A stretch of 64,000 bases of DNA from a bacterium (GTDB lineage Bacteria; Patescibacteriota; Minisyncoccia; Phycocordibacterales; JAKAEA01). The stretch covers positions 925 to 64,924 of the forward strand of contig JAJYGQ010000017.1 of the NCBI GenBank assembly GCA_021785065.1, given 5' to 3'. Under the pieces are notes generated by a model. The model made no database searches, was not told where the DNA came from, and worked only from the letters and a program-made list of their open reading frames with translations. The position numbers were made by a program, and so were the translations under genes. Below are positions 6,081 through 52,758 of the stretch, in pieces (position 1 is the stretch's first letter; every line of letters starts with the position of its first letter).

Positions 6081-6081
6081 T

Positions 6082-6573: not shown

Positions 6574-6578
6574 TTACT

Positions 6579-7061: not shown

Positions 7062-7107
7062 ATTTTGCGAAGTATGTTATTATTAAAAAACCAAATAATT
7101 CCATAGT

Positions 7108-7521: not shown

Positions 7522-7644
7522 TCGAAATTTGCCTTCAAAGATATCCACAATGCTAGCGATTTGCTTGCTTGCATTTACCAGAGGGCCCCGTATACTTAAA
7601 GTAAATAAAACGTCGTTATTTACACGGCCATTAATTTTAAAAAA

Positions 7645-12900: not shown

Positions 12901-14306
12901 ATTACGACATTCAATATGCGACGAATACACTTACAGTAACTAAAGCGCCACTTCTCGGAAAAATTCTCGCATCTAATAAGACGTATGACGGCACCACTGA
13001 TGCCAGCACCACCTGTACCTTTACGGGAATTCTCAATGGCGACAACGTAACCTGCACCACTTCAAACGCTGCATTTGCAACTCGAAACGTTAGTAGCACC
13101 ACGGTGACCGCCGATCTCAATCTCTCTGGTCCTGATGCAGGCAATTACGGAATTAATCCAACAGCAACCACCAACGCTTCTATTAATCCGCTCGCCCTTA
13201 CGGTGACTGCTGTACCGAACACTAAAATTTATGATGGCACCACTGCCGCCGCCGCTCTTCCGACGTTCACGCCCACAATACTCGGTCAGGGCGACACTCC
13301 CGACTTCATAGAGACCTATGACACGGCGACCGCTGGTATAAACAAAACACTAACACCAAGTGGGGTAGTGAATGACGGCAATAATGGTAAAAACTACACG
13401 TACAAATATGTTTCTGTGTCTACTGGCGTTATCTCGAAAGCTAATCAAACTGTTTCTTTCGTTAAATATCCAAGCGGTACTATTAGCGGAAATTCCTTTA
13501 CCGTTAGCGCGACATCAACGTCAGATTTGCCGGTTACCTTTACTGGTGGCACGTCGGGTGTTTGCAGCGTCAACGCCGATGGTACAGTAAATGTTCTAGG
13601 ATCTGGACAGTGTAATGTTATTGCCGAGCAGGCGGGTAATGCTGATTACAATCCCGCATCAACCAATATGACGTTTAGCGTGGTGTATAACGTAACACCT
13701 ACCACAATCACTATTTCATCTGTCTCTCCATCCGCGGCCGCCACCGGCTCTAACGTCACCATCAACTGGACTTCGACGAATGCTCCCACCGGGTCAGCGG
13801 TAGCGCTCACCCTCTTCAATAGTAGCGGTAACGAAGTGGGTGTCTTAACTAAAGACGCCGATAGTACTGGAAGCTATGTTTGGAGCATTCCTACTTGTGT
13901 GTCAGGTCCATCGGGCCCGGGTAGCGGTGGCATTATTCCTATTACCTCCTGTACGCCTACCGATAGCAGCGGTGTCTACGAGACGCCCGTGGGCAACTAC
14001 ACTATTGTAGCCAAGCTCTATACACCGAAAGGTGGCTATGGTGATGGTATGATTGCCCCTTCACCTTCTCTCCAAACTCTCGCGACTTCAGCAGCAATGC
14101 CGTTTACGGTGATACCTGCTCCGACCACTAGGATTGAGTCGTCGCTTAGTTTTGCTGCGCCGTTAATGGTTTCCACCTCAACATCAACGCCATCAACGCC
14201 ACCAACACCAACTTCAACTCCTCCGACTATCGATACTACTTCTACAACCACACCCACAACCGCACCCACAACAACAAGCACAAGCACCTCGACGCCAACG
14301 AAATAG
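9936..14306 (+). CDS. Giant secreted surface protein or adhesin with about ten tandem YDG/MBG-type Ig-like repeats and a Thr/Pro-rich C-terminus
   Basis: 1456 aa. The signal peptide (LAFAFVTALLATGGFAVHAAYA) sits best if the start is the Met at 9975. The unit K(V/I/T)YDGTT...Y.I..G.L....NY.I......LT(I/V) recurs, for example KVYDGLTTTD, KIYDGTTAATSTP, KTYDGTTAATVNL, KQYDGTNTAD, KVYDGTTDATV, KTYDGTTDAST and KIYDGTTAAAALP. The tail reads STSTSTPSTPPTPTSTPPTIDTTSTTTPTT. Confidence 0.8.
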   Translation: MPVLLRVHIIIISMQKFKSYVGQFCTTHRQIAKGLAFAFVTALLATGGFAVHAAYADSATLGVTQITAVKTYATADDTYANGWEWIFDVTVPSNQTLLQMKFADWTNGTSVIPAANNIQFYSQQSTNASDEAHAIPITAADTYSGIMYINPNTDLNVNQAGRQIQIVVEARIPTGSTGGSYSTSYGINTTATSTISLSDLTQTYDSTAKSVTVTTDPSGLATQVTYNGSATAPTAAGTYTVDAVITDPNYTGTSTATLTINPAQVAVVANPQTKVYDGLTTTDPALTYTATPALFGSDTFTGALTRTAGEGVGSYPITQGTLKLDSNYVLNFSPSTFVITAQPAKVTLGNLNQEYGSTTPVTVTTDPSGLATSVTYNGSPTVPTNAGSYTVVAKITDPNYTGSSTETLVVAPRPITVTATTDDKIYDGTTAATSTPTITSGYLVGSDTATLTEAFQNKDAGTGKTLIPSATISDGNGGANYAVTLVNNTTGIITSAPATILATGVDKTYDGTTAATVNLKVLGAVPTDSLSATGDAVFDGSNVGPHTINVTNIVVSGTGVTSNDYSYNTSTSTTATINPASLTITADNESKTYGDTYTFNGTEFNATGLIKGTSDSVTSATLTSAGTVASAAFGTYPINISNVVGTGLSNYNISYNPGTLTVGTKTVTATITAESKQYDGTNTADITSCTVNGAVNGDNLTCTASNGTFSDKNVGNGKTVTADVTLVGTNAGNYTLTSPVTTTANITAAPLTVTAVTDNKIYDSTVAATGTPSITAGSLQGTDTATFSEVFKTKDVGSNKTLIPSISIDGGTGNSNYNITYVNDTTGVITARPLLVTAKGVDKVYDGTTDATVTLSDNRIAGDKLTDNYTTATFASPNVGNNIPITVTGISISGTDAGNYTLTDTSTTTAANITPAKLTILPYGVQKVYGDAITLPVLPPGFFSQGLQGTDKVTSVDLTSAGITSTAIVGKYDIFAKDAVISPSTSFANYDIQYATNTLTVTKAPLLGKILASNKTYDGTTDASTTCTFTGILNGDNVTCTTSNAAFATRNVSSTTVTADLNLSGPDAGNYGINPTATTNASINPLALTVTAVPNTKIYDGTTAAAALPTFTPTILGQGDTPDFIETYDTATAGINKTLTPSGVVNDGNNGKNYTYKYVSVSTGVISKANQTVSFVKYPSGTISGNSFTVSATSTSDLPVTFTGGTSGVCSVNADGTVNVLGSGQCNVIAEQAGNADYNPASTNMTFSVVYNVTPTTITISSVSPSAAATGSNVTINWTSTNAPTGSAVALTLFNSSGNEVGVLTKDADSTGSYVWSIPTCVSGPSGPGSGGIIPITSCTPTDSSGVYETPVGNYTIVAKLYTPKGGYGDGMIAPSPSLQTLATSAAMPFTVIPAPTTRIESSLSFAAPLMVSTSTSTPSTPPTPTSTPPTIDTTSTTTPTTAPTTTSTSTSTPTK
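10441..13400 (+). repeat. Intragenic tandem coding repeats (about 270-nt units, diverged) inside the adhesin gene
   Basis: DNA motifs such as acggcacgactgcagc, tacgacggcacaacggcagcgaca and tatgacggcaccactgatgcc recur at roughly 90-codon spacing. Confidence 0.5.
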
Positions 14307-23329: not shown

Positions 23330-23878
23330 TTATTGTGTGTTGGCGGCTCGAGCAACTGAAGCTACGGTGGTGGCGAGGGCAGCTCCTGAAGATAGATCAG
23401 CGGTATCTAGTGTGGGGTTCCAGAAAATATATTCAATATCGTGTTTCGCTGAGCGCCACGGGTGCTCGATGGGGCAGCCGGTCTTTTCGCTATTGCTGAT
23501 AGCGGTGTCGTGACCGATATAAAAACCGATGTGGCCGTGCATTTCGCCGCCGCCGAAATCAACTTTTTTCCACACAATGACACTGCCGACGGGCGGCTCG
23601 CTTTCTCCCGGTATCTCATGCCAGCCACTTTCTTGAAGATCTTTGATAGTGGAACCGACAGTGGCGTGCGATTTTTTTATTAATGCCAGGGCAGCGAGTA
23701 CCGAGGAAACAAAATAGGCGCAGGAAAGCTGGCCATCGCGGCCAACGTCAGTTTTAACACCGTCAACGAGAGCGTAAAAGTTGCGATACATTCGCGTACC
23801 GACGCTATTTTTTATAACGGCCAGGTAACTGTCGCGTAAGAGGAATTTGATTGAAGGCTGTTTTTGCATTCTATTCAT
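23330..23878 (-). CDS. Hypothetical protein, possibly a papain-like NlpC/P60-CHAP superfamily hydrolase
   Basis: The track ORF runs to 24028 but overlaps tRNA-Tyr; I trimmed it to the internal ATG at 23878 (MNRMQKQ). A candidate catalytic Cys (LSCAYFVSSVL) and His (GHIGFYIGHDTAIS) are arranged as in NlpC/P60 and CHAP. No signal peptide. Confidence 0.35.
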   Translation of the reverse strand: MNRMQKQPSIKFLLRDSYLAVIKNSVGTRMYRNFYALVDGVKTDVGRDGQLSCAYFVSSVLAALALIKKSHATVGSTIKDLQESGWHEIPGESEPPVGSVIVWKKVDFGGGEMHGHIGFYIGHDTAISNSEKTGCPIEHPWRSAKHDIEYIFWNPTLDTADLSSGAALATTVASVARAANTQ

Positions 23879-23893
23879 TATACTACGTTTGGG

Positions 23894-23977
23894 TGCGCAG
23901 GGAGGGATTTGAACCCCCGTAGCCCGTAGGGCGCCTGATTTACAGTCAGGTGCAATTGACCACTCTGCCACCTGCGC
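23894..23977 (-). tRNA. tRNA-Tyr (anticodon GTA)
   Basis: Reverse complement gcgcaggtggcagagtggtcaattgcacctgactgtaaatcaggcgccctacgggctacgggggttcaaatccctccctgcgca. The anticodon arm cctga-ctGTAaa-tcagg gives GTA, with a long variable arm and an intact acceptor gcgcagg/cctgcgc plus A and CC. Confidence 0.9.
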
Positions 23978-24043
23978 GTTTATACCTACACAAGCTTGTA
24001 TTCTAGTCGCAAAAGCAGTTATAATCAAGTCTATTAAAATTCG

Positions 24044-26684: not shown

Positions 26685-29600
26685 ATGGAATCTCCAGAAA
26701 AACCTTCTTCAGCAGATAATCTAAAAGATGAAGTATCCCAGGTTGAACAAGACAAGGAGATAGATAAAAAAAGTCTGGAACTTTCTCCTACGAGTGGGCA
26801 ACTAATTGGTAAGGAAGTTATAAAGCATGAATATGCCCGCGCAGATTGGAAAAACAGGCGAGAATTGTCGGATACTTTTCGTACGGGGACCGATGTGATT
26901 GATAGATTAGTGCAGGAGTATTTGGACCTGCATCCTGAGGCGAAATCAGAGGACATCGAAACAGCTAAGAAAAAAGAAACTGGCTTTGTTACTGTCTACT
27001 ATTCTCCCAAGGTGCAATCGTATCTTGAGGAAAAGTTACGAGTATCGTTGCCACCTAGTAACTGGGTACCATTCCCAATTCTTGTTGAAAAGCTGGGTAT
27101 TTCTGCTCCTACTGTTGTCAAATTAGTGAATGCTTATTCTAAAGATTTTCCGAAGATTGCTCAGACAGAAACCGGTACATACAAAGAAGAGAAGGGGCAT
27201 AGGCGGTTATTTTATTCACCTCTATTTGCTGAGTTGCTAAAAAAAGAGTTTGATAAATACCCGGCCGCACCTCAGAATTGGAAGACCCAGATGCAAATGG
27301 CCTCTGAAGAGGGTGTTGATTTCGCACGCCTAGATAAATTTTTAAAAGAGTATTCCATGCAACATTCCCAGGAAGAACATAAGGGTATGTTTCGAAATGG
27401 GCGCAATCAAGTATATGAGCATTATTCACCGCAGGTAGCTGCGTATATACATCAAGAATTACAACGGTACGAAGACACCCCTGAAGGATGGATAAATAGA
27501 AACAAACTCGCTAAAAGACTCAATGTTGTCGATGCGACCGTCCAAAGAATTATCGATAGCTACCTAGCAACCCACCCTAATTCGAAGGATGTTAAAAAAG
27601 CAAAGAGTGATAGGGGGCTGGTTCTTAATGTTTTCTCGCCCGTTATCCAAGAATATGTCGCGGCTACACTGGCTGCTTCTTTAGAAAGTCGCAATAAAGA
27701 GAAAGAACCAGAACCTTCCGCGCCAGAAGACTGGAAGATGGTCAGTGATATTGCAAGTGAGTTAAAAGTAAGCAGAGACATAGTAACAAAAACCATCAAA
27801 GAATATTTTCAGACTCATTCTGAGGAAGGTAGTAAGAAAAAATATCCTGCGACAACTTCTTGGAAGACAGGAAGTATTGTTACTAGACCCGTTGTTCATT
27901 ATTCACCAGCTGTTGTTGATTATTGTCGAACGGTAATTGAAGGCTTAAAAAGCAATATGGCTCAAGAAGGATGGTTAACAGTAAGCGATCTTCAGGAAGT
28001 TCTCGGAATATCGTGGACGACTATAAATTCGTTAATAAAAAAATACCAGACACAAAGCACGGACCCCCAGCTCCCTAAGAGACGTAGAAATCCAAGGGGA
28101 AAGATGTGGAAATATTATCCACCGGTAGTTGTAGAATGGTTAAAAAACGAGGTGGCAAAACATCCCCGTGCACCTAAAGACTGGAAAATTCTTGGCGAGC
28201 TCTCAGAGCAATTTAGTGTCTCCCAGGATACTCTCCGGCGTTTAGTCGAAAGACAGGCAGCGTTAAATCCTGACAGTGTCGTGATCAAAGAACTCAGGAA
28301 TGATCGAGGTGTTGTGTGCACCTTTTACTCACCAGAGACCATATTGCAACTCAAACAGTCTCTTGAACAGCATACTAAAGGGAAAAGTGAGCTTGAGAAC
28401 AAGTTAACAGGTCTCCTTGCAAACCCTGAAAAGGAGGAAGGTCGCAAATTCCGTGAAATGCTCGGACTCTTCGGTCCTTCTAACTTTCTAGATATACTCT
28501 ATGTCTTGCATCCAGAGTTTAGGGATCTTCCGGTAGACCATGTTAAGGGGAAATTAACAGAATATCTTGGTAACTACCTGTTAACTGCTATACCATTTTC
28601 AGTAGATGCTCTCGAGAAAAACCTACCGTCCTTAAAACAGGAAAACCTAAGACGCGGTCTTGCCGAGGTTATAAAGGGTGATTGTCTCAATTTTTATTTG
28701 CTTGAAAAAAAGCAATCGCCTCTTAGGGATGATCTTGAGATATTTCAATTGTATTTTGACGATTTAACTTCAAGGACAGCGAATAACCAAAACCTCGACC
28801 TCAATCAAGTAGTAGCAGAAGTCAGGGAATATTATCAATCAGTTACAGGTTCGTGGGTGAAACCGACAAGGATCATTGAATCCCTAAGCGCTGATAGGCC
28901 GTTCCCCGACATTTATCAGCAAATTAATCGGCAGGAAATCAAAGATAAGAAACGTCTTCTTATTGCTGACGAAATGGGGGTAGGTAAAAGCGCTTCCGTT
29001 ATTCTTGCTAAAGAATCATTGGGAGTAAAAACCGCTCTTGCTGTAGTTCCTAGTAATGTTGTTGCTACATGGGAAAAATATCTTTCTGATACTGTTGGTG
29101 ATGATGGTCGACAGCTAGGCTATTTTAAGCCCGGCCAAGCACCGAGGGTGCTTACTATACGTAGCTCTGACGATCTTATGCGTCTTAACGATGGCTATGA
29201 TTACATTCTTATTTCACAAGAACGTTTGAATGATGCGAACGCTGAGGAGCTTCAAAAACTTGATTACGGAATGCTTATTGTAGATGAAGTCCATAAACTT
29301 AAAAATGTTCGTGATGGTAAGCGAGCAAATCATCTACTAAACCTAGCCGAAAAAATAGAAGGAGATGATAAGTACTTAGTAATGCTTTCGGGTACACCTG
29401 TGCCAAATAAAGTTGAAGATGTTGCAATGCTGCTTAAACTTTTGCATCCCGACCGTTTTGCCCAGGAAGATAGTAAGCGTCTCGTAAGCGCCATTTTGAA
29501 TGGCAGTATTGTCAATATACGTTCTTTGCTCATACCGCACATGCAGATGAAAGGCTTGGCTGAACACGTAGAAATGCCAAACCTTACAGAGGCTACCATT

Positions 29601-31316
29601 TCTATTCCGTTAAGTCGCCAAGAAGAAGATATTTATCAAGTTCTTCTTGAAGAAGACGAACTCACGCCCACACAAAAACTTCAGATTCTTCGACAATTTC
29701 TTCTCAATCATCGCTTGCTAGACATCACCCCCGGTGTGCCAGAAGCAAAAATTGAAAAAACACAAGCAGAAATATCTAAAGCGTTCGAAACAAATAATAA
29801 AGTAATTTTGTTTGTGAATGATTATATTGAGGGTGTATTGAGGGGCGAAAATTCTGTCTTAAGTCAGCTTGCTCTGCCTCCGGGTGTAATAGTGCGAGCC
29901 ATTCATGGCAACACTTCTCCAGAAGAACGTCAGTCTATTCAAGAAGAACTCAACAATTCGTCCCAAAGACTGCTTTTGGCAGTAAGTGGTAATACTGCTG
30001 ATGTGGGAGTTGATTATTCAGGCGCTGAAAGAGTTTTCTTTTATAATGAACCGTGGACAAAAGCAGCCTATGAGCAACAGCTTGCACGTGTATATCGGCC
30101 GGGCGTCACTAAAGATATTCAAGCTGACATTTTTGTTACAGAAGGCACGCTTGAACAAGGTATACATCACTACGTTGAAGTAAAAAATAAAGCAATAGAA
30201 AAGTTGCTTAAAGGCATTCCTATTACCGAGCTGGAAGCAGAGCTGCTGAAAGCTAGTGAAAGAGGTGATAATACAGATCTGGATGTTAATCCTGAATTGG
30301 CCCAGTATTATTTTTCTTCTTTTGATAAGCTCAATAGGATTTTTGCCTCAGTGAAGGAAATAGGTGAAAAGAATTTTACGGAATTCCTGCAGCGACATGG
30401 TGAAGAGTATGCGGAATGCTACCTTAACCTGGGTAGCCGAAGTTATCAGTCGAACGCAAGTCGAGTATCCGCAACAGTCATCAGTGCTCTTGGGCGACAA
30501 GATGGAATTGAAAATCCTAAAATTCTGGATATTGCCTCAGGTCCTGAAATGCTCAAGAAACATTCGGGCGAAGGTTTACAGAAAAACATAACGAGTCTGG
30601 ACATTAATCCCGCACACTTCAAAGATTCAGAGGAAGGCACGACGGTAGTGGGCAGTTTTACTAAAATGCCTTTTCCGGATGGTAGTTTTGATTATACAAA
30701 CCTGTCTTTGGCATTACAATATACAAAGTTTGTACCCAGTCGAGGTGAATATGAACGTATCCGGGTTCTCAAGGAGGCGGCCAGGGTGTTAAAAACGGGT
30801 GGCAAACTGGTTCTAAACATGCCGTACTCGTTAGACTTTAAGAATTATCAAAAATTTAAAGAATTTAGTGAATTATTTGGTTTACGAGTCGTGGACGAAT
30901 ATTCAGATGAAGTACAGGTAGGTAATTCCTATCATTCTCGTGTAATAACTCTTCAGAAAGTCGAAGGCATTGATCAGAGTATTGACGAAATCATCAGGAA
31001 TATGTTTCGTGAAGACTGGGATGGTCTTAAACTTGTTCCGAAAGAAGCGCGTCTTAAGGATTCTCGTAAAATTATCTCTCAATTTAAGATAAGTAATAAA
31101 CAGCTCGATATTTCTTTTAACGAACAGGACAAAAAAATTATTGCTGAAGAAAGAGATGCTCTTGAGAAGGCTGCCGACCTCAAAGAAAAATATGGGGCAA
31201 TAGATCGCATTGATGGAGGGCAGATTCAGGAACATGGTTTTGTCCGGCTTAAGCTGGACAAGAAATACATTCTATTTAAGAAACTTTCTGATGGTAGCGT
31301 AGTGATTGTAAAATAG
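26685..31316 (+). CDS. Large multidomain protein: about seven HTH-like repeats, an SNF2-family ATPase/helicase (N and C lobes) and a C-terminal class I SAM methyltransferase (Methyltransf_11-like)
   Basis: 1543 aa. Repeats of 70-85 aa (aa ~45-560) share YSP....L......P..W......LA..L.VS..TV..LI..Y...HP. SNF2 motifs are LLIADEMGVGKSASV (I) and MLIVDEVHKLKN (II), with a helicase-C lobe (LLLAVSGNTADVGVDYSGAERVFFYNEPW, QQLARVYRPG). The MTase has ILDIASGPEML (motif I), MPFPDGSFDY (motif II) and VLKTGGKLVLNMPYS (motif III), and no DPPY/NPPY motif. The gene is about 41% GC against about 52% for its neighbours. Confidence 0.75.
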   Translation: MESPEKPSSADNLKDEVSQVEQDKEIDKKSLELSPTSGQLIGKEVIKHEYARADWKNRRELSDTFRTGTDVIDRLVQEYLDLHPEAKSEDIETAKKKETGFVTVYYSPKVQSYLEEKLRVSLPPSNWVPFPILVEKLGISAPTVVKLVNAYSKDFPKIAQTETGTYKEEKGHRRLFYSPLFAELLKKEFDKYPAAPQNWKTQMQMASEEGVDFARLDKFLKEYSMQHSQEEHKGMFRNGRNQVYEHYSPQVAAYIHQELQRYEDTPEGWINRNKLAKRLNVVDATVQRIIDSYLATHPNSKDVKKAKSDRGLVLNVFSPVIQEYVAATLAASLESRNKEKEPEPSAPEDWKMVSDIASELKVSRDIVTKTIKEYFQTHSEEGSKKKYPATTSWKTGSIVTRPVVHYSPAVVDYCRTVIEGLKSNMAQEGWLTVSDLQEVLGISWTTINSLIKKYQTQSTDPQLPKRRRNPRGKMWKYYPPVVVEWLKNEVAKHPRAPKDWKILGELSEQFSVSQDTLRRLVERQAALNPDSVVIKELRNDRGVVCTFYSPETILQLKQSLEQHTKGKSELENKLTGLLANPEKEEGRKFREMLGLFGPSNFLDILYVLHPEFRDLPVDHVKGKLTEYLGNYLLTAIPFSVDALEKNLPSLKQENLRRGLAEVIKGDCLNFYLLEKKQSPLRDDLEIFQLYFDDLTSRTANNQNLDLNQVVAEVREYYQSVTGSWVKPTRIIESLSADRPFPDIYQQINRQEIKDKKRLLIADEMGVGKSASVILAKESLGVKTALAVVPSNVVATWEKYLSDTVGDDGRQLGYFKPGQAPRVLTIRSSDDLMRLNDGYDYILISQERLNDANAEELQKLDYGMLIVDEVHKLKNVRDGKRANHLLNLAEKIEGDDKYLVMLSGTPVPNKVEDVAMLLKLLHPDRFAQEDSKRLVSAILNGSIVNIRSLLIPHMQMKGLAEHVEMPNLTEATISIPLSRQEEDIYQVLLEEDELTPTQKLQILRQFLLNHRLLDITPGVPEAKIEKTQAEISKAFETNNKVILFVNDYIEGVLRGENSVLSQLALPPGVIVRAIHGNTSPEERQSIQEELNNSSQRLLLAVSGNTADVGVDYSGAERVFFYNEPWTKAAYEQQLARVYRPGVTKDIQADIFVTEGTLEQGIHHYVEVKNKAIEKLLKGIPITELEAELLKASERGDNTDLDVNPELAQYYFSSFDKLNRIFASVKEIGEKNFTEFLQRHGEEYAECYLNLGSRSYQSNASRVSATVISALGRQDGIENPKILDIASGPEMLKKHSGEGLQKNITSLDINPAHFKDSEEGTTVVGSFTKMPFPDGSFDYTNLSLALQYTKFVPSRGEYERIRVLKEAARVLKTGGKLVLNMPYSLDFKNYQKFKEFSELFGLRVVDEYSDEVQVGNSYHSRVITLQKVEGIDQSIDEIIRNMFREDWDGLKLVPKEARLKDSRKIISQFKISNKQLDISFNEQDKKIIAEERDALEKAADLKEKYGAIDRIDGGQIQEHGFVRLKLDKKYILFKKLSDGSVVIVK

Positions 31317-44171: not shown

Positions 44172-44783
44172 ATGGCTGCGCATTCTTATGTTATTGGGAT
44201 CGATGAAGTTGGTCGCGGTCCGCTGGCTGGGCCGGTGACGCTCTGTGCCTGCGCCGTTTCCGCACAAACACTTGCGCGCGTTTTTTCTCACGACATGCGA
44301 GGAATTAAAGACTCTAAAAAATTAACGCCCGCCGCGCGCGAAATTTTTTTCGCGATGGCAAAACGTTTGCGGCGCGAGAAAAAAATCAACTATGCCGTGT
44401 CGCACGTGAGCGCTTCGGTGATTGACCGCAAGGGGATTGCTCAGGCGATTGCTATAGCGATTGCCCGCTGTTTACAGAAACTTAATATTTCTCCTCACCA
44501 TGTTCATATTTTTCTTGATGGTAGCTTGAGGGCGCCGCAAAAATTTACTCATCAGAAAACTATCATCGGTGGCGACCAGTCGGTGCCAATTATCTCCCTT
44601 GCGTCAGTTATCGCAAAAGTGACTCGCGATAGAAAAATGACGCGCTTAGCGAAACAGTTTCCGCACTATGGTTTGGAGGTACACAAGGGTTATGGCACCT
44701 TGGTCCATCGTCGGGCTATTCAAAAATACGGTCTTTCGGCGCTCCACCGCCGCACTTTTTGTCAAAAATTCCTTGACAAATAG
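44172..44783 (+). CDS. rnhB: Ribonuclease HII
   Basis: YVIGIDEVGRGPLAGPV opening motif and conserved DSK and GSLRA regions. 203 aa. Confidence 0.85.
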   Translation: MAAHSYVIGIDEVGRGPLAGPVTLCACAVSAQTLARVFSHDMRGIKDSKKLTPAAREIFFAMAKRLRREKKINYAVSHVSASVIDRKGIAQAIAIAIARCLQKLNISPHHVHIFLDGSLRAPQKFTHQKTIIGGDQSVPIISLASVIAKVTRDRKMTRLAKQFPHYGLEVHKGYGTLVHRRAIQKYGLSALHRRTFCQKFLDK

Positions 44784-44808
44784 GCTCTAATATGCTATCA
44801 TTACGCCG

Positions 44809-44860: not shown

Positions 44861-45823
44861 ATGGCCACGCGTATTACCCAAATTCTGTTTCCAACCAATT
44901 GCAGCGTTGGGGACCTGATCGGCCTCCATCTGTTGCGACGGTGTGGGGAGACCACATTTCCTGGCGTTGCTACGGCACGTTTGGAAACATTTAATGGTAA
45001 TCTCGGCGATCAAACCCACCAAAAGTGGATTGACCGTGGGATTTTCGTAATTGGCATAAAGCCATACGAAAGTCCGGCTTTTGTGTCGATTGCAGAAATT
45101 CTCAATCTGCACAAACACCCATTCTATGGTCACCTCATAAAAAGGGTGTGGCCGGAATTTTGCTCGACGTGCGAGAGTTCTGCCGAAATCGGCAAAATCC
45201 TCGCGCATCTACGAAAGCACAATCCGGCGGGGCTTCTGCCTTGGACGGCGGCGATTTTTAACGCCGACCTCGAGAGACAGAAAGCTTTCCTTAAGGCGCA
45301 GAGTCAGTTGTCCGCGCCTCCTTCTAGGAAGGAGGAAGAACAACTGCCTTCCGGTAGCATTCACTTTGAAGTCGTGGTGCCGGCAGATAAGTCGGCGCTA
45401 CCAATCAAGGGTGTTGTTGTCGCTTCTGATAGCGACAACATGATTGCTGCTGCCCGTTCCCGGCGGATCGCTATCCTAATTCAGGTGCGATCCACGGGGC
45501 ATACCCATCTCTTTTGCTTCTCTCCCGCCATCGACATGAAGTTTGTCGTAGCAGAGATGCGGAAGAAGATACTGAGGTTAGCAGGTCAGAGTAAGAAGGC
45601 CGTTGCTAGTATCACTGCCGAACACCTCCAAGAAGAGGGGGTCATTTCTGAAGTCCCCAATGTGAACTTCACGATTCGGCGCGATATCGACGGGCGGGTT
45701 ACTGGTCAGTCGGTGGTGAATACTCATACGGAAAATCCGATTGGGTTACCTCCAGCAGATATTGAGGCTGTAATCCGGCGCTCGATATTTGTGAACGGTA
45801 ACATTGAGGTGACGGCAGCATAG
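44861..45823 (+). CDS. Hypothetical protein with no recognisable domain
   Basis: 320-aa track ORF. A consensus RBS aaaggagg lies 7 nt upstream of the ATG. The gene is bracketed by predicted terminators on both sides. Confidence 0.5.
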   Translation: MATRITQILFPTNCSVGDLIGLHLLRRCGETTFPGVATARLETFNGNLGDQTHQKWIDRGIFVIGIKPYESPAFVSIAEILNLHKHPFYGHLIKRVWPEFCSTCESSAEIGKILAHLRKHNPAGLLPWTAAIFNADLERQKAFLKAQSQLSAPPSRKEEEQLPSGSIHFEVVVPADKSALPIKGVVVASDSDNMIAAARSRRIAILIQVRSTGHTHLFCFSPAIDMKFVVAEMRKKILRLAGQSKKAVASITAEHLQEEGVISEVPNVNFTIRRDIDGRVTGQSVVNTHTENPIGLPPADIEAVIRRSIFVNGNIEVTAA

Positions 45824-45844
45824 CTGTTCCGCCACCCCAACCCA

Positions 45845-45885
45845 GCCCTGCGGCGAGAAATCGTTGCGGGGCTTTTTATTGTGTG
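45845..45885 (+). terminator. Intrinsic terminator after the 44861 gene
   Basis: agccctgcggcg-agaaat-cgttgcggggct is a 12-bp stem with three G-U pairs, followed by ttttt. Confidence 0.45.
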
Positions 45886-45928: not shown

Positions 45929-46156
45929 ATGGTTAATCACATGCGACATACTCGGGCTCACACCGGTAACCGCCGTTCTCATCATGGCTTGAAAAATCAG
46001 GCTTTGGGTTTTTGCTCTAAATGCGGCTCAGCCAAGCCGGCACATGCAATGTGTCCTCACTGCGGCTTTTATCGCGATCGCACGGTGGTAGATGTCCAAG
46101 CCGCTCTCCTCAAGAAAACTGAACGCCAAAAGAAGCGCGCCGCCAAGACTGCGTAA
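45929..46156 (+). CDS. rpmF: 50S ribosomal protein L32
   Basis: RRSHHGLKNQALGFCSKCGSAKPAHAMCPHCGFYRDRTVV matches L32 ([40 protein letters not shown]). The start may be the Met at 45941. Confidence 0.75.
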   Translation: MVNHMRHTRAHTGNRRSHHGLKNQALGFCSKCGSAKPAHAMCPHCGFYRDRTVVDVQAALLKKTERQKKRAAKTA

Positions 46157-46186: not shown

Positions 46187-47128
46187 ATGCGTGCTACACT
46201 GAAAGGAAATTCGGCTATGGCGAATCGGCACCTTTCACGTTCACTCGTTCTCCAGTCCCTGTATGAATGGGACTTTAATCATCATGGCGATGCTGACATC
46301 GCTGCTATTATTAAACGTAATCAACAAGAGTTTGGTGAAAATCAAACTGATGAACAATTTGCGCAAACGCTTGCTCGCGGTGTGCTGGCGAAACGCGGTG
46401 AGCTCGACACGATTATCGCGAAGGCCGCGCCCGATTGGCCTTTGGAAAAAATTTCTGTAATGGATCGTAATATTTTGCGCATCGGCCTCTACGAGCTGCT
46501 GTTTTCTGATCGCGCTGAAGTGCCAGCAAAAGTGGCGATCAATGAGGCTATTGAATTGGCAAAAGCCTACGGCGGCGAAACGTCGGGGCGCTTTGTGAAT
46601 GGTGTTGTCGGCGCGGTGTATAAAGAAATTGGCGAGCCAGGTAAGGAGGAAGTTTCTAAACGACAAAATGGTGCCGGTGCCGCCGGCGGCAAAAAAGAAA
46701 TCCCCACTCAGCACCTGGGCGGCGCGGTAGTGTTTGCGCGCGAAGGTGAAGAGGTGTACTTGGCACTGGTGCACGATGTCTTTGGGCACTGGACCTTGTC
46801 GAAGGGTGGTATCGATGCGGGTGAAAGTGTTGAAGATGGTACGTTGCGAGGCATTCGCGAAGAGCTCGGTCTTAAAGATTTAACTATTAAAGATAAACTC
46901 GACGAAAACACTTATACCGCTTACAATCCCGAGAGCGGCAAAAAGAAAAAACACGTTACTTACTTCTTACTCCAATCGCCGTTTACGGATTTAAAGCTTG
47001 AAGAGAAAGGCGGCCTCGACGATGCTAAGTGGTTTAAGCTTAAAGATATTTTAGATCTTAATTTTTACAACGATATTTTGCCTATTGTCACAAAAGCAAT
47101 AAATTTGATTTTAGCGCAAAAAAGTTGA
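46187..47128 (+). CDS. nusB: Transcription antitermination factor NusB fused to a C-terminal NUDIX hydrolase domain
   Basis: The N-terminal ~150 aa are NusB; VPAKVAINEAIELAK matches E. coli VPYKVAINEAIELAK almost exactly. A Gly-rich linker follows, then a NUDIX fold with the box GGIDAGESVEDGTLRGIREELGL. 313 aa in a single frame. Confidence 0.8.
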   Translation: MRATLKGNSAMANRHLSRSLVLQSLYEWDFNHHGDADIAAIIKRNQQEFGENQTDEQFAQTLARGVLAKRGELDTIIAKAAPDWPLEKISVMDRNILRIGLYELLFSDRAEVPAKVAINEAIELAKAYGGETSGRFVNGVVGAVYKEIGEPGKEEVSKRQNGAGAAGGKKEIPTQHLGGAVVFAREGEEVYLALVHDVFGHWTLSKGGIDAGESVEDGTLRGIREELGLKDLTIKDKLDENTYTAYNPESGKKKKHVTYFLLQSPFTDLKLEEKGGLDDAKWFKLKDILDLNFYNDILPIVTKAINLILAQKS

Positions 47129-47835
47129 ATACTCTGTATATGGTAAAGGATTTTTCCCGATTTGAAGAAAGTGTGGGGGTGGTATTTAAAGATAAGACGC
47201 TGTTGCAGCAAGCGTTTACGCATCGCTCGTACTTGAATGAGAATAAAGCAGTTGGCCTGGCTGATAACGAGCGCTTGGAATTTCTGGGCGATGCCGTGTT
47301 GCAATTAGCAGTGACGAGTCATCTTTTTAAACTCTATCCCGATCGGCCGGAAGGTGAGCTCACGAGCGTTCGGTCGGCATTGGTTAATACCCAGACGCTC
47401 AGCAAGTTGGCGACTGATGCTGGCATGAATGATTTTCTCTTGCTTTCGCGCGGTGAACAAAAAGATACGGGCCGCGCCCGCACTATTATTTTGGCTGATG
47501 CGTTTGAAGCGCTTATTGGCGCGATGTATCTTGACCAAGGATACGCGGCGGCTGAGCAATTTATCGCCGCGAAAATTTTTCCGCTGGCAGCGGATGTGGT
47601 GGCTGAAAAAGCATGGCTCGATGCCAAATCGCGTTTTCAGGAAGCGGCCCAAGAGCACGTTGGTACTACCCCCGCCTATAAAACGATAAAAGAAAGCGGG
47701 CCCGATCACGATCGTATCTTTACCGTCGGCGTCTACCTAGGTAAGGAATTAATCGCGAGTGGCGAGGGCGCGTCGAAACAAGAAGCTGAACAAGAAGCGG
47801 CGCGTAAAGCGCTTGCTGCGCGCGGTTGGGCATAA
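47125..47835 (+). CDS. rnc: Ribonuclease III
   Basis: Signature ERLEFLGDAVLQLAVTSHLF and a C-terminal dsRBD. 236 aa. Confidence 0.9.
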   Translation: MNTLYMVKDFSRFEESVGVVFKDKTLLQQAFTHRSYLNENKAVGLADNERLEFLGDAVLQLAVTSHLFKLYPDRPEGELTSVRSALVNTQTLSKLATDAGMNDFLLLSRGEQKDTGRARTIILADAFEALIGAMYLDQGYAAAEQFIAAKIFPLAADVVAEKAWLDAKSRFQEAAQEHVGTTPAYKTIKESGPDHDRIFTVGVYLGKELIASGEGASKQEAEQEAARKALAARGWA

Positions 47836-47845
47836 TTTTATTTGC

Positions 47846-50140
47846 ATGCGTCTCAAATCTCTCGAAATCAGCGGGTTCAAATCGTTTGCGAAAAAAGCAA
47901 CGCTAGAATTTTCCACGCCGATTACAGCGATTGTTGGGCCCAATGGCTCAGGCAAATCCAACGTGGCCGAAGCGTTTCGTTTTGTGCTCGGCGAGCAGTC
48001 GATGAAATCACTGCGCGGCAAGCGTGGCGAGGATTTGATTTTTAACGGCGGCGCGGCTGGCGGCCGACTCAATCGAGCGGCGGTCACTCTGCTTTTTGAA
48101 AATACTGATCGGGCACTCAATCTTGATTTTGATGAGGTATCACTGGCGCAGATCGTGCACCGCGATTCAGCGAATGATTATGCTATCAACAATTCGCCGG
48201 CGCGTTTGAAAGATATCGTTGAATTGCTGGCGGGCGCTCATATCGGTTCGTCGGGTCATCATATTATTTCGCAGGGTGAGGCTGACCGAATTTTGAATGC
48301 TAATTTGAAAGAGCGGCGCGAGATGATTGAAGACGCGCTCGGTTTAAAAATTTATCACTACAAGCGCGAGGAGAGCGAACGTAAGCTCGAGAAAACAGCG
48401 GAGAACATGAAGCAGGTGGAAAGTTTGCGTAAGGAAATTGCGCCGCATTTGCGCTTTTTGGAAAAACAGATGGAGAAGGTGGAAAAGACGGAAAAATTGC
48501 GCGGCGATCTCGTTGAGCAGGCAAAAGAATATTTTAAACGTGAAGAAATTTATGTGCGGGTGCACGGTGTGCGTTTGGCCAAAGAGGATCAACCAGTCGC
48601 TCGGCGCAAGGGTGAACTCGATCGGGAACTTACAGCAGCGAAGGCAGTGTTGGAGAAAGCGGCAACGCACGATGGTAAAAAAGACGCGACGACGAGTGCC
48701 TTACTTGATGTTGAGAGAAAAGTAGCGGCGGTGCGAGCGGAGCGAGAGGAGCTGTCGCACCGTGTTGGTCGGTTGGAAGGCGAAATTGCTTCGGAAGAAC
48801 GAACTATTCGCCGCGAAGAGGCGCTAGCAAAGAGTGAAGCGGGGAAAACCGTGCCGTTTGTTGAAATCGAAGCGGCTATTGCCACGGTGCACGAACGCTT
48901 AGCTGAGGCAGAAACGGCGAGCGACCCAAGTTTGTTCAAGAAAATTTCAATTTCTATTAAAGATTTTCTCAAGCAGTTTTTGCATCGCTATCACGATGCC
49001 GCTCAAAACGATTCTGTTATTGCGGCTAGTCGCGCTGACATCGAGCGACTCACCGCCGAGCGCACAGCGGCATCCGACAAAGCAAAAGCTCTGGCGGATG
49101 TTGAAACAGATTTAGTTGCTGAAATTGATCGCTTGCGCGAGACGATTGAAAAAGAAAAAGACACCAATCGCGACGCTGAGAAAGCGGTATTTCGCATTAT
49201 GGCCGAGCTCAATGAAATTAGTTCTAAACGAGCGACAATTCGCGCGCACCAAGAAACACTCGCTGCCATAGAAACCGCATTCAAGCATGACCTTGGTGAT
49301 GTGGCGACGTTGGCTGGGCGTGCCGTGCTTGATTTTGCACATTTCGCCATTGCTGGTGTTTCTGATGAAGATATTGCGAGTGAAGCGCGCGAGCGCCAAG
49401 AAGAGCGCCGCAAACAAATCGAGCGGCTAAAAATTCGTATTGAAGAAGCGGGCGCGGCTGGCGGCGAAGAGATTGCAAAAGAATATCGTGAGGCTAAAGA
49501 GCGCGATGAATTTCTTTCGCGCGAATTAGCTGATTTGGAAAAATCGGCGGAAACATTACAGACACTTATTGCTGACTTGGTAGAAAAACTTGATACTGAT
49601 TTTAAAAATGGCGTGCAGAAAATAAACGAGCAGTTCGGCAAATTTTTTACCCTTATGTTTGGTGGTGGCCAAGCCAAGCTCGAAGTAGTAAAAGCGCCGA
49701 CTCGAGTGCGCGCTAAAAAGTCCGACGATCTCGCCGACCTTACCGACTCATCAGAAGAAGAACTGATTGACGATGAAGACACCGAAGAGGGTATTGATAT
49801 CGCCGTTAGTCTCCCTAAAAAGCGCATTAAGGGTCTCACCATGCTTTCCGGCGGCGAGCGCGCGCTCACCTCCATCGCGCTTCTCTTTGCGATCTCTCAA
49901 GTTAATCCGCCACCCTTTATTATTCTTGACGAAACCGACGCGGCGCTCGACGAAGCCAACTCGCGCAAATATGGCGATATGATCGAAAACCTCTCGAAAT
50001 TTTCGCAGCTGATTTTAATTACCCATAATCGCGAGACGATGTCGCGCGCTGGCGTGCTCTATGGCGTTACCATGGGCAGCGACGGTGCCTCGAAACTTCT
50101 CTCTATAAAATTTGACGAAGCGGTGGCTGTGGCAAAGTAG
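47846..50140 (+). CDS. smc: SMC-family chromosome segregation ATPase; shortened, with a reduced coiled coil and no obvious hinge
   Basis: The ATG at 47846 is in frame with track ORF 47759. The head reads MRLKSLEISGFKSFAKKATLEFSTPITAIVGPNGSGKSNVAEAFRFVLGEQS, the C-terminal signature is LSGGERALTSIALLFAISQVNPPPFIILDETDAALD, and the middle is a long coiled coil. About 764 aa. Confidence 0.75.
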   Translation: MRLKSLEISGFKSFAKKATLEFSTPITAIVGPNGSGKSNVAEAFRFVLGEQSMKSLRGKRGEDLIFNGGAAGGRLNRAAVTLLFENTDRALNLDFDEVSLAQIVHRDSANDYAINNSPARLKDIVELLAGAHIGSSGHHIISQGEADRILNANLKERREMIEDALGLKIYHYKREESERKLEKTAENMKQVESLRKEIAPHLRFLEKQMEKVEKTEKLRGDLVEQAKEYFKREEIYVRVHGVRLAKEDQPVARRKGELDRELTAAKAVLEKAATHDGKKDATTSALLDVERKVAAVRAEREELSHRVGRLEGEIASEERTIRREEALAKSEAGKTVPFVEIEAAIATVHERLAEAETASDPSLFKKISISIKDFLKQFLHRYHDAAQNDSVIAASRADIERLTAERTAASDKAKALADVETDLVAEIDRLRETIEKEKDTNRDAEKAVFRIMAELNEISSKRATIRAHQETLAAIETAFKHDLGDVATLAGRAVLDFAHFAIAGVSDEDIASEARERQEERRKQIERLKIRIEEAGAAGGEEIAKEYREAKERDEFLSRELADLEKSAETLQTLIADLVEKLDTDFKNGVQKINEQFGKFFTLMFGGGQAKLEVVKAPTRVRAKKSDDLADLTDSSEEELIDDEDTEEGIDIAVSLPKKRIKGLTMLSGGERALTSIALLFAISQVNPPPFIILDETDAALDEANSRKYGDMIENLSKFSQLILITHNRETMSRAGVLYGVTMGSDGASKLLSIKFDEAVAVAK

Positions 50141-50245: not shown

Positions 50246-50280
50246 GAAAAGCCATTAAAGCATATCTTTAATGGCTTTTC
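50246..50280. terminator. Perfect 15-bp inverted repeat hairpin between smc and the toxin gene
   Basis: gaaaagccattaaag-catat-ctttaatggcttttc. It overlaps the stop of the 50255..50635 minus gene and lies about 100 nt after the smc stop. Confidence 0.5.
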
Positions 50281-50635
50281 TCGTGATTTCGAAAAATTTT
50301 TTATCTAAAATACCTACTTTTTCTACTAAACGTCGACTGTCTATTGTTCGTAATTGAGAGATAATCACACACGATTTTTTACCCGATATATTGCCTATAA
50401 AAATTCTATATGGATGTTTATATATAGAGGTACTAAGAGGTACGACAAGACATATTTCTCCTAATGCTTTTATAATAATAATCGGTCGAATAAAATTTCT
50501 TCCAACACCATTTTGCTCAGAACCAATATTTTTTCCAAGTATACACCACCAAATTTCTCTAGGTCGGTAATATCGAGGTTTATGTGTCAAAACAATAAAT
50601 TTTTTCTTGCTGTTCCAAACGTCAAACTGGTCCAT
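50255..50635 (-). CDS. MazF/EndoA (PemK)-family mRNA interferase toxin-like protein with a ~25-aa N-terminal extension; no cognate antitoxin nearby
   Basis: REIWWCILGKNIGSEQNGVGRNFIRPIIII and CVIISQLRTIDSRRLVEKVGILDKKFFEITRKAI parallel B. subtilis EndoA ([26 protein letters not shown] and [33 protein letters not shown]). The gene sits in an AT-rich patch of about 30% GC. Confidence 0.55.
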   Translation of the reverse strand: MDQFDVWNSKKKFIVLTHKPRYYRPREIWWCILGKNIGSEQNGVGRNFIRPIIIIKALGEICLVVPLSTSIYKHPYRIFIGNISGKKSCVIISQLRTIDSRRLVEKVGILDKKFFEITRKAIKDML

Positions 50636-50700: not shown

Positions 50701-52758
50701 TTACGAAACGATGGCGTAGTCGAGGGTTTTGGAATCGAGGTCGGCGCGGACAACGCGGTAGCGGACGCTGTCGCCGAGGCGAAATTTTCGGCGGGTGCGC
50801 TCGCCTTCAACGGTGTAGGTGCGCGGATTAAACACGTAGTAATCGTCGCCGAGTTCGCGTAGCGGCACCATGCCTTCGCAGCGAGTAGCAGTATCTTCTA
50901 TATAAATGCCCCAGTCGGTGACGCCGGAAATGGTGCCGGAAAATTCTTGGCCGATGCGCTCGCTCATATATTCTACTTGCTTGTATTTGATGCTAGCGCG
51001 CTCGGCTTCAGCGGCAACAATTTCGCGTTCGCTCGCATGAGCTGACACTGCTTCAAGATCTTTAAACACTTTCTGGGTGCCTTCAAGAACGCCGGCTAAA
51101 ACGCGGTGCACGACAAGGTCGGTGTAACGGCGAATGGGCGAGGTAAAATGGGTATAAAATGAAAAGCCGAGGCCAAAGTGACCGATGTTTTTAGTGGAAT
51201 AAGCAGCCTTGGCCATCGAGCGAATAGTGGCGGTTTTAATGAGCGATTCTTCCGGTACACCTTTAACGCTTTCAAGCAGGATGTTGATGTCGCGCGCGGT
51301 GATCTTGCCGTGTTTGACAGGCAAGTGAAAGCCAAGCGCCTGCAAAAAGAGGGCAAGCTCTTGCAGGCGTTCACGCTCGGGCAGATCGTGAATGCGATAA
51401 ATAGATGCCCCAGCGGCACCGTGCACGTGTTCGCCCGCGCCATTGCCGTGTTTTTTGTAAATAAATTCAGCGACTTCGCGGTTGGCCAGCAACATAAATT
51501 CTTCAACAAGCTTGTGGGTGTCGAGACGCTCTTTTTTGATAATTGCAATCGGCTTGCCGTGCTCGTCGAGCTTGAATTTCACTTCGTCTTGTTCAAAGTC
51601 GATGGCGCCGCGCTTATAATTTTCTTGCTGCATTTTTTTAGCGATGCGGTTTAAAGTAGTGAGTGTTTCAGCGTGTTCGTGCCCAGCGCCGGTGCTGCCA
51701 TTCAAAATATCCTGCGCACTTTCGTAGCTGAAGCGGTGGTTGCTGTTTATAACCGTGCGACCAAACCAGCGTTCGTGGATGTGGCCGGCGTCGTCCATAA
51801 TAAAAATAGCGGAAAAAGCAAAACGGTCTTCATGAGGATTGAGGCTGCATAAGTCGTTGGAAAGCACTTCAGGGAGCATGGGAATCGTGCGGTCAACGAG
51901 GTAGACGCTAAAGCTACGCTTCAAGGCCTCCGTGTCGAGTGGTGTGCCGGGGCGCACATAGTAAGAAACGTCAGCGATGTGCACGCCGATTTCGTAGCGG
52001 CCAGCGTGGGGGCCGCTTTCAATTTTTTTATACGAGAGGGCATCGTCGAAATCTTTGGCGTCGATAGGGTCGATAGTAAAAGTGACGGTGTCGCGCATAT
52101 CTCGGCGGCGGGCGATTTCTTCGGCGCGTAGCGGCTTTTCCGTTTGCTCGATTTTGTGGGCTTCGGCAGTGACGGCCTCGGGAAATGTTTGATCGATACC
52201 ACGGTCTAGGAGGATCGATTGGATTTCCACCTCGTGCTCGCCTTTGGTGCCGATGAGTTCAACGAGTGCGCCGGTAGGGTAGTGCTCATTAGCTTGCCAG
52301 TGGGCGAGTGTTACTAACACTTTTTCATTTTTACGATTGGAAGCGTTGGCAATGAGTGGATCGTTCGCGGGAATAAGAAAATCGACATAGGCGCGACGAT
52401 CATCGGGGCGTACCCACCATTGATTGTCGTGTTGCACTAGGGTGCCAACAAACTGCGTACGAGCGCGCCGCACGATGCACTCTACTTGGCCGGCCATTTG
52501 CACGAAATCGCCTTTTTCCACGCTGGTGCGGCGCGCGGAACGCCCCTTGCGTACATCAAAATATTTTCCCGTAATACGCACTTCTACCTCGTCGCCATTA
52601 AGGGCGGTGTTTATGAACTCTGGCGTGACAACGATTTCCTGATCACGTTTTTTTGTTTGAGGTGTGCCAGCAAGGGTAACAAAACCGAATCCTTTAGAGT
52701 TAGTTCTGATAGTGCCAATAGCGCTTTTTGTGCTCGGCGGTTGATTTTTTTGATCCAT
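50701..52758 (-). CDS. rnr: Ribonuclease R (RNB family 3'-5' exoribonuclease with an S1 domain)
   Basis: Cold-shock-like OB folds, the RNB catalytic domain (DFDDALS...) and a C-terminal S1 domain. 685 aa. Confidence 0.85.
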   Translation of the reverse strand: MDQKNQPPSTKSAIGTIRTNSKGFGFVTLAGTPQTKKRDQEIVVTPEFINTALNGDEVEVRITGKYFDVRKGRSARRTSVEKGDFVQMAGQVECIVRRARTQFVGTLVQHDNQWWVRPDDRRAYVDFLIPANDPLIANASNRKNEKVLVTLAHWQANEHYPTGALVELIGTKGEHEVEIQSILLDRGIDQTFPEAVTAEAHKIEQTEKPLRAEEIARRRDMRDTVTFTIDPIDAKDFDDALSYKKIESGPHAGRYEIGVHIADVSYYVRPGTPLDTEALKRSFSVYLVDRTIPMLPEVLSNDLCSLNPHEDRFAFSAIFIMDDAGHIHERWFGRTVINSNHRFSYESAQDILNGSTGAGHEHAETLTTLNRIAKKMQQENYKRGAIDFEQDEVKFKLDEHGKPIAIIKKERLDTHKLVEEFMLLANREVAEFIYKKHGNGAGEHVHGAAGASIYRIHDLPERERLQELALFLQALGFHLPVKHGKITARDINILLESVKGVPEESLIKTATIRSMAKAAYSTKNIGHFGLGFSFYTHFTSPIRRYTDLVVHRVLAGVLEGTQKVFKDLEAVSAHASEREIVAAEAERASIKYKQVEYMSERIGQEFSGTISGVTDWGIYIEDTATRCEGMVPLRELGDDYYVFNPRTYTVEGERTRRKFRLGDSVRYRVVRADLDSKTLDYAIVS

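Follow-up and report, generated by a model that had tools for sequence, protein, structure and literature searches.

NusB is a universal and normally single-domain protein that binds BoxA RNA together with S10/NusE, nucleating the antitermination complex. How rRNA transcription, 5′-end chemistry, and processing are coordinated is still an open question, and in Patescibacteria/CPR (Candidate Phyla Radiation), a large share of bacterial diversity with minimal regulatory repertoires, such coordination is almost unstudied. To our knowledge, the sole widely known fusion of a NusB domain is the N-terminus of the RsmB/Sun methyltransferase. Here, we describe a gene that joins NusB to a C-terminal Nudix domain, located at 46217..47128 (+) of a 64-kb stretch of a Patescibacteria contig (JAJYGQ010000017.1), referred to below as the window. 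Across its relatives, the catalytic residues of the Nudix box vary while those of the ligand pocket are nearly invariant. On balance, we consider it somewhat probable from these sequence patterns that the protein is a NusB with a tethered nucleotide- or polyphosphate-binding Nudix module, ancestrally catalytic and weakened or inactive in the window organism.

On the Nudix side, the closest described proteins are the diadenosine tetraphosphate (Ap4A) hydrolases. They belong to a Nudix clade with NUDT2, RppH, and Dcp2 that includes enzymes acting on RNA 5′ ends, and NUDT2, itself an Ap4A hydrolase, also acts on 5′-triphosphorylated RNA (PPP-RNA; PMC8616924). On the antitermination side, SuhB has an enzyme fold yet works with the Nus factors in a way that does not depend on catalysis (PMC4807359). 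In the searchable literature, covered non-exhaustively, we found no description of a NusB–Nudix fusion and nothing relevant on Nudix proteins in Patescibacteria, CPR, or Parcubacteria. Each component is known, but their combination in one protein and the way it has evolved seem not to have been described.

A NusB protein with a C-terminal Nudix domain

The coding sequence comprises 303 amino acids (aa) and a stop codon. Residues are numbered from the ATG at 46217, except for Pfam spans, which refer to a 313-aa version starting at the alternative upstream ATG at 46187. The initial annotation recognized NusB in the N-terminal half, and this assignment holds. The all-helical domain (residues 1–140; 46217..46636, +) passes the cut-offs of PF01029 (residues 17–145, E 3e-35, 122 bits vs 23.1) and of the TIGR01951 nusB equivalog model (127.3 vs 88.35 bits), and 14 of the 15 positions in its VPAKVAINEAIELAK agree with E. 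coli VPYKVAINEAIELAK. AlphaFold2 (AF2) places seven helices over residues 4–138 with a predicted local distance difference test score (pLDDT) of ~90–98. By template modeling (TM) score, this half superimposes on T. maritima NusB (0.83), on Aquifex NusB in the NusB–NusE–BoxA complex (0.87), and on E. coli NusB–S10 (0.83), the matched structures being 1tzv, 3r2c, and 3d3b. In E. coli NusB, U8 of BoxA is recognized by F122, E81, and K101–E106 of helix α6; F122 stacks on U8, and the F122D substitution abolishes BoxA binding (Stagno et al., PMC3177189). The alignment pairs F126 with F122 and D83 with E81, and the α6 segment KVAINE is identical. On a tree of 218 fused sequences, from which all change counts below are taken, F126 shows no changes and D83 shows two. 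Because the fold, the equivalog cut-off, and the BoxA-recognition residues are all kept, NusB function is expected to be retained in the fusion.

The C-terminal half (residues 164–303; 46706..47125, +) adopts a Nudix fold of the Ap4A/ApnA-hydrolase type, in agreement with the fold first proposed for it. PF00293 covers residues 180–295 (E 7e-13, 49.2 bits vs a cut-off of 21.1). The AF2 model, built from a 54-sequence alignment, has a mean pLDDT of 91.8 and a predicted TM score (pTM) of 0.78, with a β-rich domain over residues 164–302 whose strand–helix–strand pattern exceeds a pLDDT of 90 and is matched by hundreds of Nudix structures in Foldseek. For a two-domain protein, this pTM suggests a defined inter-domain arrangement in the model. 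The best Foldseek matches of the Nudix half include the Aquifex Ap4A hydrolase 3i7u (TM 0.88 at 1.8 Å) and Ndx1 (1vc8, TM 0.84), followed by mycobacterial MutT1/Rv2985, the Nudix domain of NrtR, NUDT2, and CT771, with BdRppH reaching just 0.66. Searched with the single sequence, the nearest solved proteins are NudI, Ndx1, Ap4A hydrolases, and Dcp2; searched with the family profile, they are the Aquifex hydrolase 3i7u (E 6e-24), Chlamydia CT771 (E 5e-17), Ndx1 (E 1e-14), human NUDT2 (E 5e-14), and Dcp2 (E 1e-10). The RppH equivalog models (NCBIfam PRK00714) are missed, the best being NF001936, which scores 32.4 bits where 118 are required. The label "RppH-like" given at first is therefore replaced, with Ap4A/Ap6A hydrolases standing closest.

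Between the two halves lies a disordered basic linker of ~23 residues (141–163; 46637..46705, +; pLDDT 53–58) that contains the Gly/Ala-rich stretch NGAGAAGGKK. The description of this linker as Gly-rich fits the clade of the window protein but not the family, in which it is variable, basic, 8–36 aa long, and rich in Lys, Glu, and Asp (median isoelectric point (pI) 9.4). Its positions have a high substitution rate.

The reading frame is sound. A single open reading frame (ORF) runs uninterrupted over 46187..47128 (+), and the exact 303-aa product recurs on three independently assembled contigs (NCBI metagenome-assembled genome (MAG) GCA_027328845.1, ENA ERZ27236914, and Logan SRR13178631), which excludes the local frameshift or missed stop between the domains that had been a concern. 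Translation almost certainly begins at the second ATG (46217) rather than at 46187, from which the gene was first drawn, because MANRH opens nearly all homologs, an AGGA precedes this second ATG by 8 nt, and 303 aa is also the length in independent gene calls; inspection of the sequence upstream of ATG 46187 found no AGGA. Frameshifted or fragmented copies of the gene occur in two species-representative genomes (L042, 4001–4956; L046, 3992–4546) as possible pseudogenes or assembly errors, and they illustrate that such cases exist. An assembly or annotation artefact merging two genes is nonetheless effectively refuted for the window: we found no support for it, and the same continuous ORF in three assemblies, more than 200 homologs of the same architecture, and a confident two-domain AF2 model all stand against it.

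Erosion of the catalytic box and conservation of the pocket

The non-canonical Nudix box GGIDAGESVEDGTLRGIREELGL (residues 197–219; 46805..46873, +) was compared with the consensus GX5EX7REUXEEXGU. G1, E7, R15, E19, E20, and G22 are present, and position 16 is Gly212, encoded by GGC at 46850..46852 (+) on codon inspection, where NUDT2 has E58 and MutT has E53. In every alignment to a Protein Data Bank entry, "RG" of the query stands opposite "RE", and in the profile alignment position 16 coincides with E58 of NUDT2 by chain index. The E58A variant of NUDT2 has no activity on PPP-RNA or PPP-dinucleotides (PMC8616924); this mutant was crystallized as 4ijx, which is among the Foldseek matches. 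The initial annotation stated that a box without its catalytic glutamates would speak against its proposal. This applies in part: the box is there, but it is incomplete, with Gly at position 16 and E7, E19, and E20 in place. A sequencing error at Gly212 was ruled out, as GGC is two substitutions away from Glu, Gly occurs in 39 related clusters, and three assemblies encode the identical protein.

The catalytic positions also vary across the family. Among the 121 closest clusters, position 16 is Glu in 50, Gly in 39, Asn in 19, and Lys in 5, and position 19 is Glu in 76 and Asp in 36, while position 20 is Glu in all 121. Glu is found at position 16 in 14 of the 52 full-length 50%-identity representatives, with all three glutamates in 11 and none in 7. 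Roughly 36% of the fused sequences (79/218) keep E16, E/D19, and E20. On the tree, position 16 changes between Glu and non-Glu at least 32 times and requires 65 Fitch steps, placing it at the 79th percentile of variability within the Nudix domain; position 19 lies at the 52nd percentile and position 7 at the 31st, with E20 (E216) and G1 evolving slowly at the 10th. Because the catalytic positions vary like ordinary surface sites whereas ligand-binding residues are invariant, hydrolysis is not, judging from these substitution patterns, the conserved function of the family. The Nudix domain was probably an active enzyme when fused, since the deepest fused members (Komeilibacteria L048; L055) keep a canonical box, and it would have eroded later in parallel in many lineages, that of the window included.

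These data bear on the earlier view of the fusion as an active RNA 5′-end pyrophosphohydrolase or decapping enzyme, which would strip 5′ pyrophosphate or Np4 caps from nascent BoxA transcripts and so couple 5′-end maturation or decay to antitermination. We regard this as unlikely, given that the window protein has Gly at the position where E58A kills NUDT2 activity, that positions 16 and 19 evolve like unconstrained sites, and that the RppH cut-offs are missed by a wide margin, although a weak RppH-model match does exist. Further arguments in its favor are the fold clade, which includes Dcp2, BdRppH, and NUDT2, the last dephosphorylating PPP-RNA like RppH (PMC8616924), the canonical box in about a third of the family with the deepest members among them, and the retention of E7, R15, E19, and E20 in the window protein. 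The Nudix domain is also acidic (median net charge −7, pI 5.1), like Ndx1 and NUDT2, and so provides no proxy for a basic surface that would hold an RNA backbone. An acidic domain on a basic linker would be better suited to recognizing a terminal nucleotide or polyphosphate, with metal, than to binding an extended RNA backbone.

The near-invariant residues of the domain form a discontinuous set spanning 46775..47074 (+): D187, W192, T193, K196, Y233, K245, Y249, W272, Y284, and D286. These include its slowest sites, with no Fitch steps at Y284, two each at D187, W192, and K196, three at W272, and four at T193, followed by nine at Y233, 11 each at K245 and Y249, and 12 at D286. Loss of the triad makes no difference to these residues, which stay the same in sequences of either kind. 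We mapped them through the family-profile alignment to NUDT2 and the residue roles described for Ap4A hydrolases (PMC4734340). K196 corresponds to NUDT2 K42, which contacts the P1 phosphate, and Y233 to Y82, which contacts the P1 phosphate and stacks on adenine; Y284 corresponds to the adenine-stacking F128 and D286 to E130, which contacts adenine N6 (PMC4734340). K245 aligns with NUDT2 K89, the equivalent of PfLys94, which engages sulfate, while HsLys89 does not (PMC4734340). Because the slowest sites align with adenine and phosphate ligands of Ap4A hydrolases, we infer that selection has kept the substrate-binding pocket and one metal-ligand glutamate (E216) and has released the other catalytic residues.

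Such a pattern is unexpected for a ligand-free structural subunit, a SuhB-like scaffold within the rRNA antitermination complex that would touch RNA polymerase (RNAP), NusA, or S10. A generic interface would not be expected to have equivalents of adenine and phosphate binders, along with the invariant metal ligand E216, as its best-conserved residues, and the linker is disordered and variable in length. SuhB itself is the precedent for the scaffold, its growth defect not being tied to inositol monophosphatase (IMPase) activity (PMC4807359); the dispensable catalytic residues would agree with this role, and the pTM of the AF2 model hints at a defined inter-domain arrangement. Weighing these points, we think a scaffold of this kind quite improbable.

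We instead favor the tethered binding module. In this model, the NusB half would bind BoxA RNA with S10/NusE and nucleate the antitermination complex, with the Ap4A-hydrolase-type Nudix domain hanging on its C-terminus by a flexible basic tether of ~20 residues. At the time of fusion, the domain was probably an active hydrolase of (di)nucleoside polyphosphates or RNA 5′ ends. Catalytic glutamates would then have been lost repeatedly and the adenine-stacking and P1-phosphate residues kept, so that the conserved job would most likely be to bind an adenine-nucleotide or polyphosphate group where NusB, S10, and BoxA form their complex. Lineages with an intact triad might still hydrolyze the ligand, for instance as a turnover step, but hydrolysis would be optional, and it would be weak or absent in the window organism. 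One candidate ligand is the (p)ppN or Np4N at the 5′ terminus of the nascent transcript that bears BoxA, and a second, likewise plausible, is a free ApnA-type nucleotide. In model rRNA operons, the transcript 5′ end lies just tens of nucleotides from BoxA. Given a strictly conserved pocket and decaying catalytic residues, the domain is likelier to be a reader of a nucleotide or of an RNA 5′ end than a robust enzyme.

Several observations weigh against the binding module as a full account. About 36% of the family has the full glutamate triad, meaning that catalysis matters in at least some lineages, and the window protein still has E7, R15, E19, and E20, so residual or altered activity is possible, since there are Nudix enzymes that rely on other general bases. 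The conserved aromatic and Lys residues have a part in the fold as well. Furthermore, the parsimony counts come from a neighbor-joining tree, and change numbers such as the 32 at position 16 would be overestimated if that tree were wrong.

A more specific form of the proposal, which we advance tentatively, is that the Nudix domain is dedicated to reading nucleotide chemistry at the antitermination complex. It would sense the status of the 5′ end (triphosphate or Np4A-type cap) of the nascent, BoxA-bearing pre-rRNA or a free ApnA-type alarmone and, being tethered to NusB, would tune how the complex for antitermination and rRNA maturation assembles. If true, this would constitute a new regulatory input into the Nus system in bacteria with very few classical regulators, and an enzyme-to-sensor transition would be traceable in progress across one lineage. 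Triad-intact and triad-eroded orthologs offer a natural series for studying how an enzyme becomes a binding module.

Distribution and genomic setting of the fusion

The fusion is conserved among relatives, a check called for by the initial annotation. A word-indexed search returned at least 120 clusters at 63–99% identity, nearly all with PF01029 plus PF00293 and ~295–313 aa long, from MAGs of Parcubacteria, Paceibacterota, Zambryskibacteria, and Kaiserbacteria. Where these close clusters are named, databases label them "NusB" alone, which hides the extra domain from annotation-based surveys. An exhaustive search of 50%-identity representatives gave 136 proteins at E<1e-30, and ~58 of the best 150 representatives are full-length fusions, down to 32% identity. 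Altogether, we found more than 200 full-length homologs of the same architecture, likewise down to 32% identity, in genomes of the Parcubacteria group, whose members are ultra-small and uncultured; it is in this "Parcubacteria group" that NCBI taxonomy places the fused lineages. Such a lineage-wide presence of Nudix on NusB points to an unrecognized accessory function of the antitermination machinery. Many fusion loci are titled "uncultured Candidatus Saccharibacteria bacterium" (L002, L005, L009, L013, and others) and have 50–65% identity to Parcubacteria/Paceibacterota proteins, suggesting that the Saccharibacteria label of that MAG series is unreliable.

With one genome per GTDB species, ~50 species-level genomes carry the full-length fusion, under the labels Kaiser-, Zambryski-, Nomura-, Ryan-, Niyogi-, and Komeilibacteria and Paceibacterota. 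Another 30 or so genomes, labeled Azam-, Moran-, Yanofsky-, Nealson-, Wildermuth-, Staskawicz-, and Kerfeldbacteria, encode a plain NusB of 140–192 aa. The gene order rnhB-rpmF-nusB-rnc-smc is identical in both groups, and because it accompanies fused and plain NusB alike, the cluster is, on comparative grounds, ancestral to Patescibacteria, with Nudix added at the 3′ end of nusB in a single sub-lineage. A "…YKEIGEPGKD" motif, followed by a low-complexity tail of 10–45 aa rich in Lys, Glu, and Asp, closes many of the most closely related unfused NusBs (L051–L066 and similar loci, e.g., L053 4001–4495, L060 4001–4510, and L064 4001–4552). Such a linker-like tail without Nudix may have preceded the fusion or may be what was left once the domain had been lost.

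Two apparent free-standing orthologs of the Nudix half proved to be artefacts, leaving no evidence for its unfused ancestor gene. The first (P0244) is a fusion truncated at a contig edge, in which an adaptor precedes the NusB C-terminus "…YREMGEPD"; the second (P0247) comes from a contig of 695 bp with a chimeric appearance at the Nudix box.

This distribution also informs the idea that the fusion is incidental, a housekeeping hydrolase for the nucleotide pool or for ApnA clearance that was joined to nusB by loss of intergenic sequence in a streamlined genome, with no coupling between the halves. Genomes here are compact, intergenic gaps in the nusB operon are short or absent, and the closest relatives of the domain are small-molecule ApnA hydrolases. 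However, the fusion persists at identities as low as 32%, no fission product was found, and repeated loss of catalytic glutamates in an otherwise conserved domain is not what one would expect of a housekeeping enzyme. An incidental origin of this sort strikes us as very doubtful.

The gene order around the fusion in the window is rnhB (44172..44783), a 320-aa ORF, rpmF, the fusion, rnc, and smc. The rpmF gene (ribosomal protein L32, 75 aa; 45929..46156, +; PF01783 E 2e-14, TIGR01031 51.7 bits) lies upstream of nusB in nearly all of 80 related loci. Downstream, rnc (RNase III; 47140..47835, +) encodes 231 aa from the ATG at 47140, according to TIGR02191 (256 bits) and gene calls in three assemblies. 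It is followed by smc (47846..50140, +; 764 aa from the ATG at 47846, SMC_N Pfam match, with other gene calls starting at 47813), which is conserved 3′ of rnc in related loci. The profile matches thus agree with the cluster of rpmF, nusB-NUDIX, and rnc described at the outset. The 4-nt stop/start overlaps are unsupported, as the gap from rpmF to the fusion is 30–60 nt and the called rnc ATG at 47140 leaves an 11-nt gap; an alternative TTG start of rnc at 47125 would give a 4-nt overlap (TTGA, 47125–47128) with the stop codon of the fusion.

A terminator-like hairpin with a 13-bp stem and a T-run (45844..45873, +) ends the upstream 320-aa gene and is the likely 5′ boundary of an rpmF-nusB/NUDIX-rnc-smc transcription unit. 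Because this strong hairpin precedes rpmF and no comparable terminator is found between rpmF, the fusion, and rnc, these three genes probably form one transcription unit. The adjacency to rpmF and rnc was ruled out as a fusion-specific functional cluster, given the same order with plain NusB across Patescibacteria. The proposed coupling to rRNA processing through the neighboring RNase III consequently gains no fusion-specific support, since the neighborhood is shared with plain-NusB lineages. Family hidden Markov models run at --max sensitivity found no second NusB or Nudix gene in the window, and the window contains no rRNA or BoxA-bearing leader.

The 320-aa ORF between rnhB and rpmF (44861..45823, +) has no Pfam match. 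Gene calls in independent assemblies include it, as they do an 88%-identical relative of 340 aa that also lacks a Pfam match. It is flanked by a near-consensus promoter-like site at 44773–44801 (TTGACA-17-TATCAT with TG) and by the 3′ hairpin described above. At its position, most other Patescibacteria have just 300–700 bp.

Other features of the window were recorded in passing. Directly 3′ of smc, a low-GC patch (~0.42 vs ~0.50) holds a MazF/PemK-type toxin gene (50255..50635, −), followed by RNase R (50701..52758, −). At 6052..8073 (+), three consecutive small ORFs of 173, 137, and 142 aa match T4SS_pilin PF18895, with an unassigned 160-aa ORF among them; the group looks like a paralogous pilin cluster. 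Two giant ORFs encode 1456 aa (9936..14306, +) and 1543 aa (26685..31316, +), and ORFs with chitobiase-C/Fn3-associated and cohesin-like domains come after the first, suggesting large surface proteins. Lastly, the 5′ end of an ORF with a weak CHAP-domain match (23330..24028, −) overlaps tRNA-Tyr (23892..23977, −), so its real start must lie further downstream.

Comparison with known NusB and Nudix systems

Compared with NusB of E. coli, Aquifex, and T. maritima, the fusion has in common the fold, the U8-stacking Phe, the acidic U8 ligand, and KVAINE. Where canonical NusB is a single domain of ~140 aa, the fusion adds a basic linker and a Nudix domain of ~140 aa. The placement of the fusion gene in rpmF-nusB-rnc-smc is the same as in other Patescibacteria.

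For the Nudix half, Ap4A/ApnA hydrolases (aq_158 3i7u, T. thermophilus Ndx1 1vc8, NUDT2 3u53, CT771, and MutT1/Rv2985) are the best structural and profile matches. They share with the fusion family a W-x-x-P/S-K-G strand and an acidic domain, and the family conserves counterparts of their P1-phosphate ligands (K42, Y82, and K89) as well as of the residues that sandwich adenine and bind its N6 (Y82, F128, and E130). In contrast, the Glu at box position 16 (E58 in NUDT2) is Gly in the window protein and variable among its fused relatives. Ap4A hydrolases are free-standing or, as in MutT1, accompanied by a histidine-phosphatase domain, whereas here the domain is joined to NusB. RppH and Dcp2 belong to the same Nudix clade and have in common with the fusion the idea of acting at an RNA 5′ terminus. 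Relative to RppH, however, the fusion falls far below the equivalog cut-off, reaches a TM of 0.66 with BdRppH, has lost one catalytic Glu, and gives no indication of a basic RNA-binding surface.

Non-catalytic Nudix sensors provide a further comparison for the proposed module. In NrtR (3gz8) and Bacteroides AraR (5bs6), a Nudix domain with a degenerate box and a retained pocket is carried on a regulator of gene expression, and both proteins are among the structural and profile matches of the Nudix half. The pattern in the fusion family would fit such a sensor, though one third of the family keeps a canonical box. NUDT9-H of TRPM2 is a similar case, a Nudix domain with a degenerate box and a kept pocket that sits on an ion channel and binds an ADP-ribose-type ligand. 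NrtR and AraR differ from the fusion in having a DNA-binding winged-helix partner and ADP-ribose-type ligands, as opposed to RNA-binding NusB and a pocket of the Ap4A-hydrolase type.

Within rrnTAC, the complex for antitermination of rRNA transcription, SuhB likewise acts as an enzyme fold with NusB/NusE on BoxA transcripts, where catalysis is not what matters for its role in transcription (PMC4807359). SuhB stands on its own as an IMPase-fold protein and binds NusA and RNAP, whereas the Nudix domain of the fusion is covalently attached to NusB. NUDT2, SuhB, and the NrtR/AraR sensors are precedents for one or the other half of the proposal.

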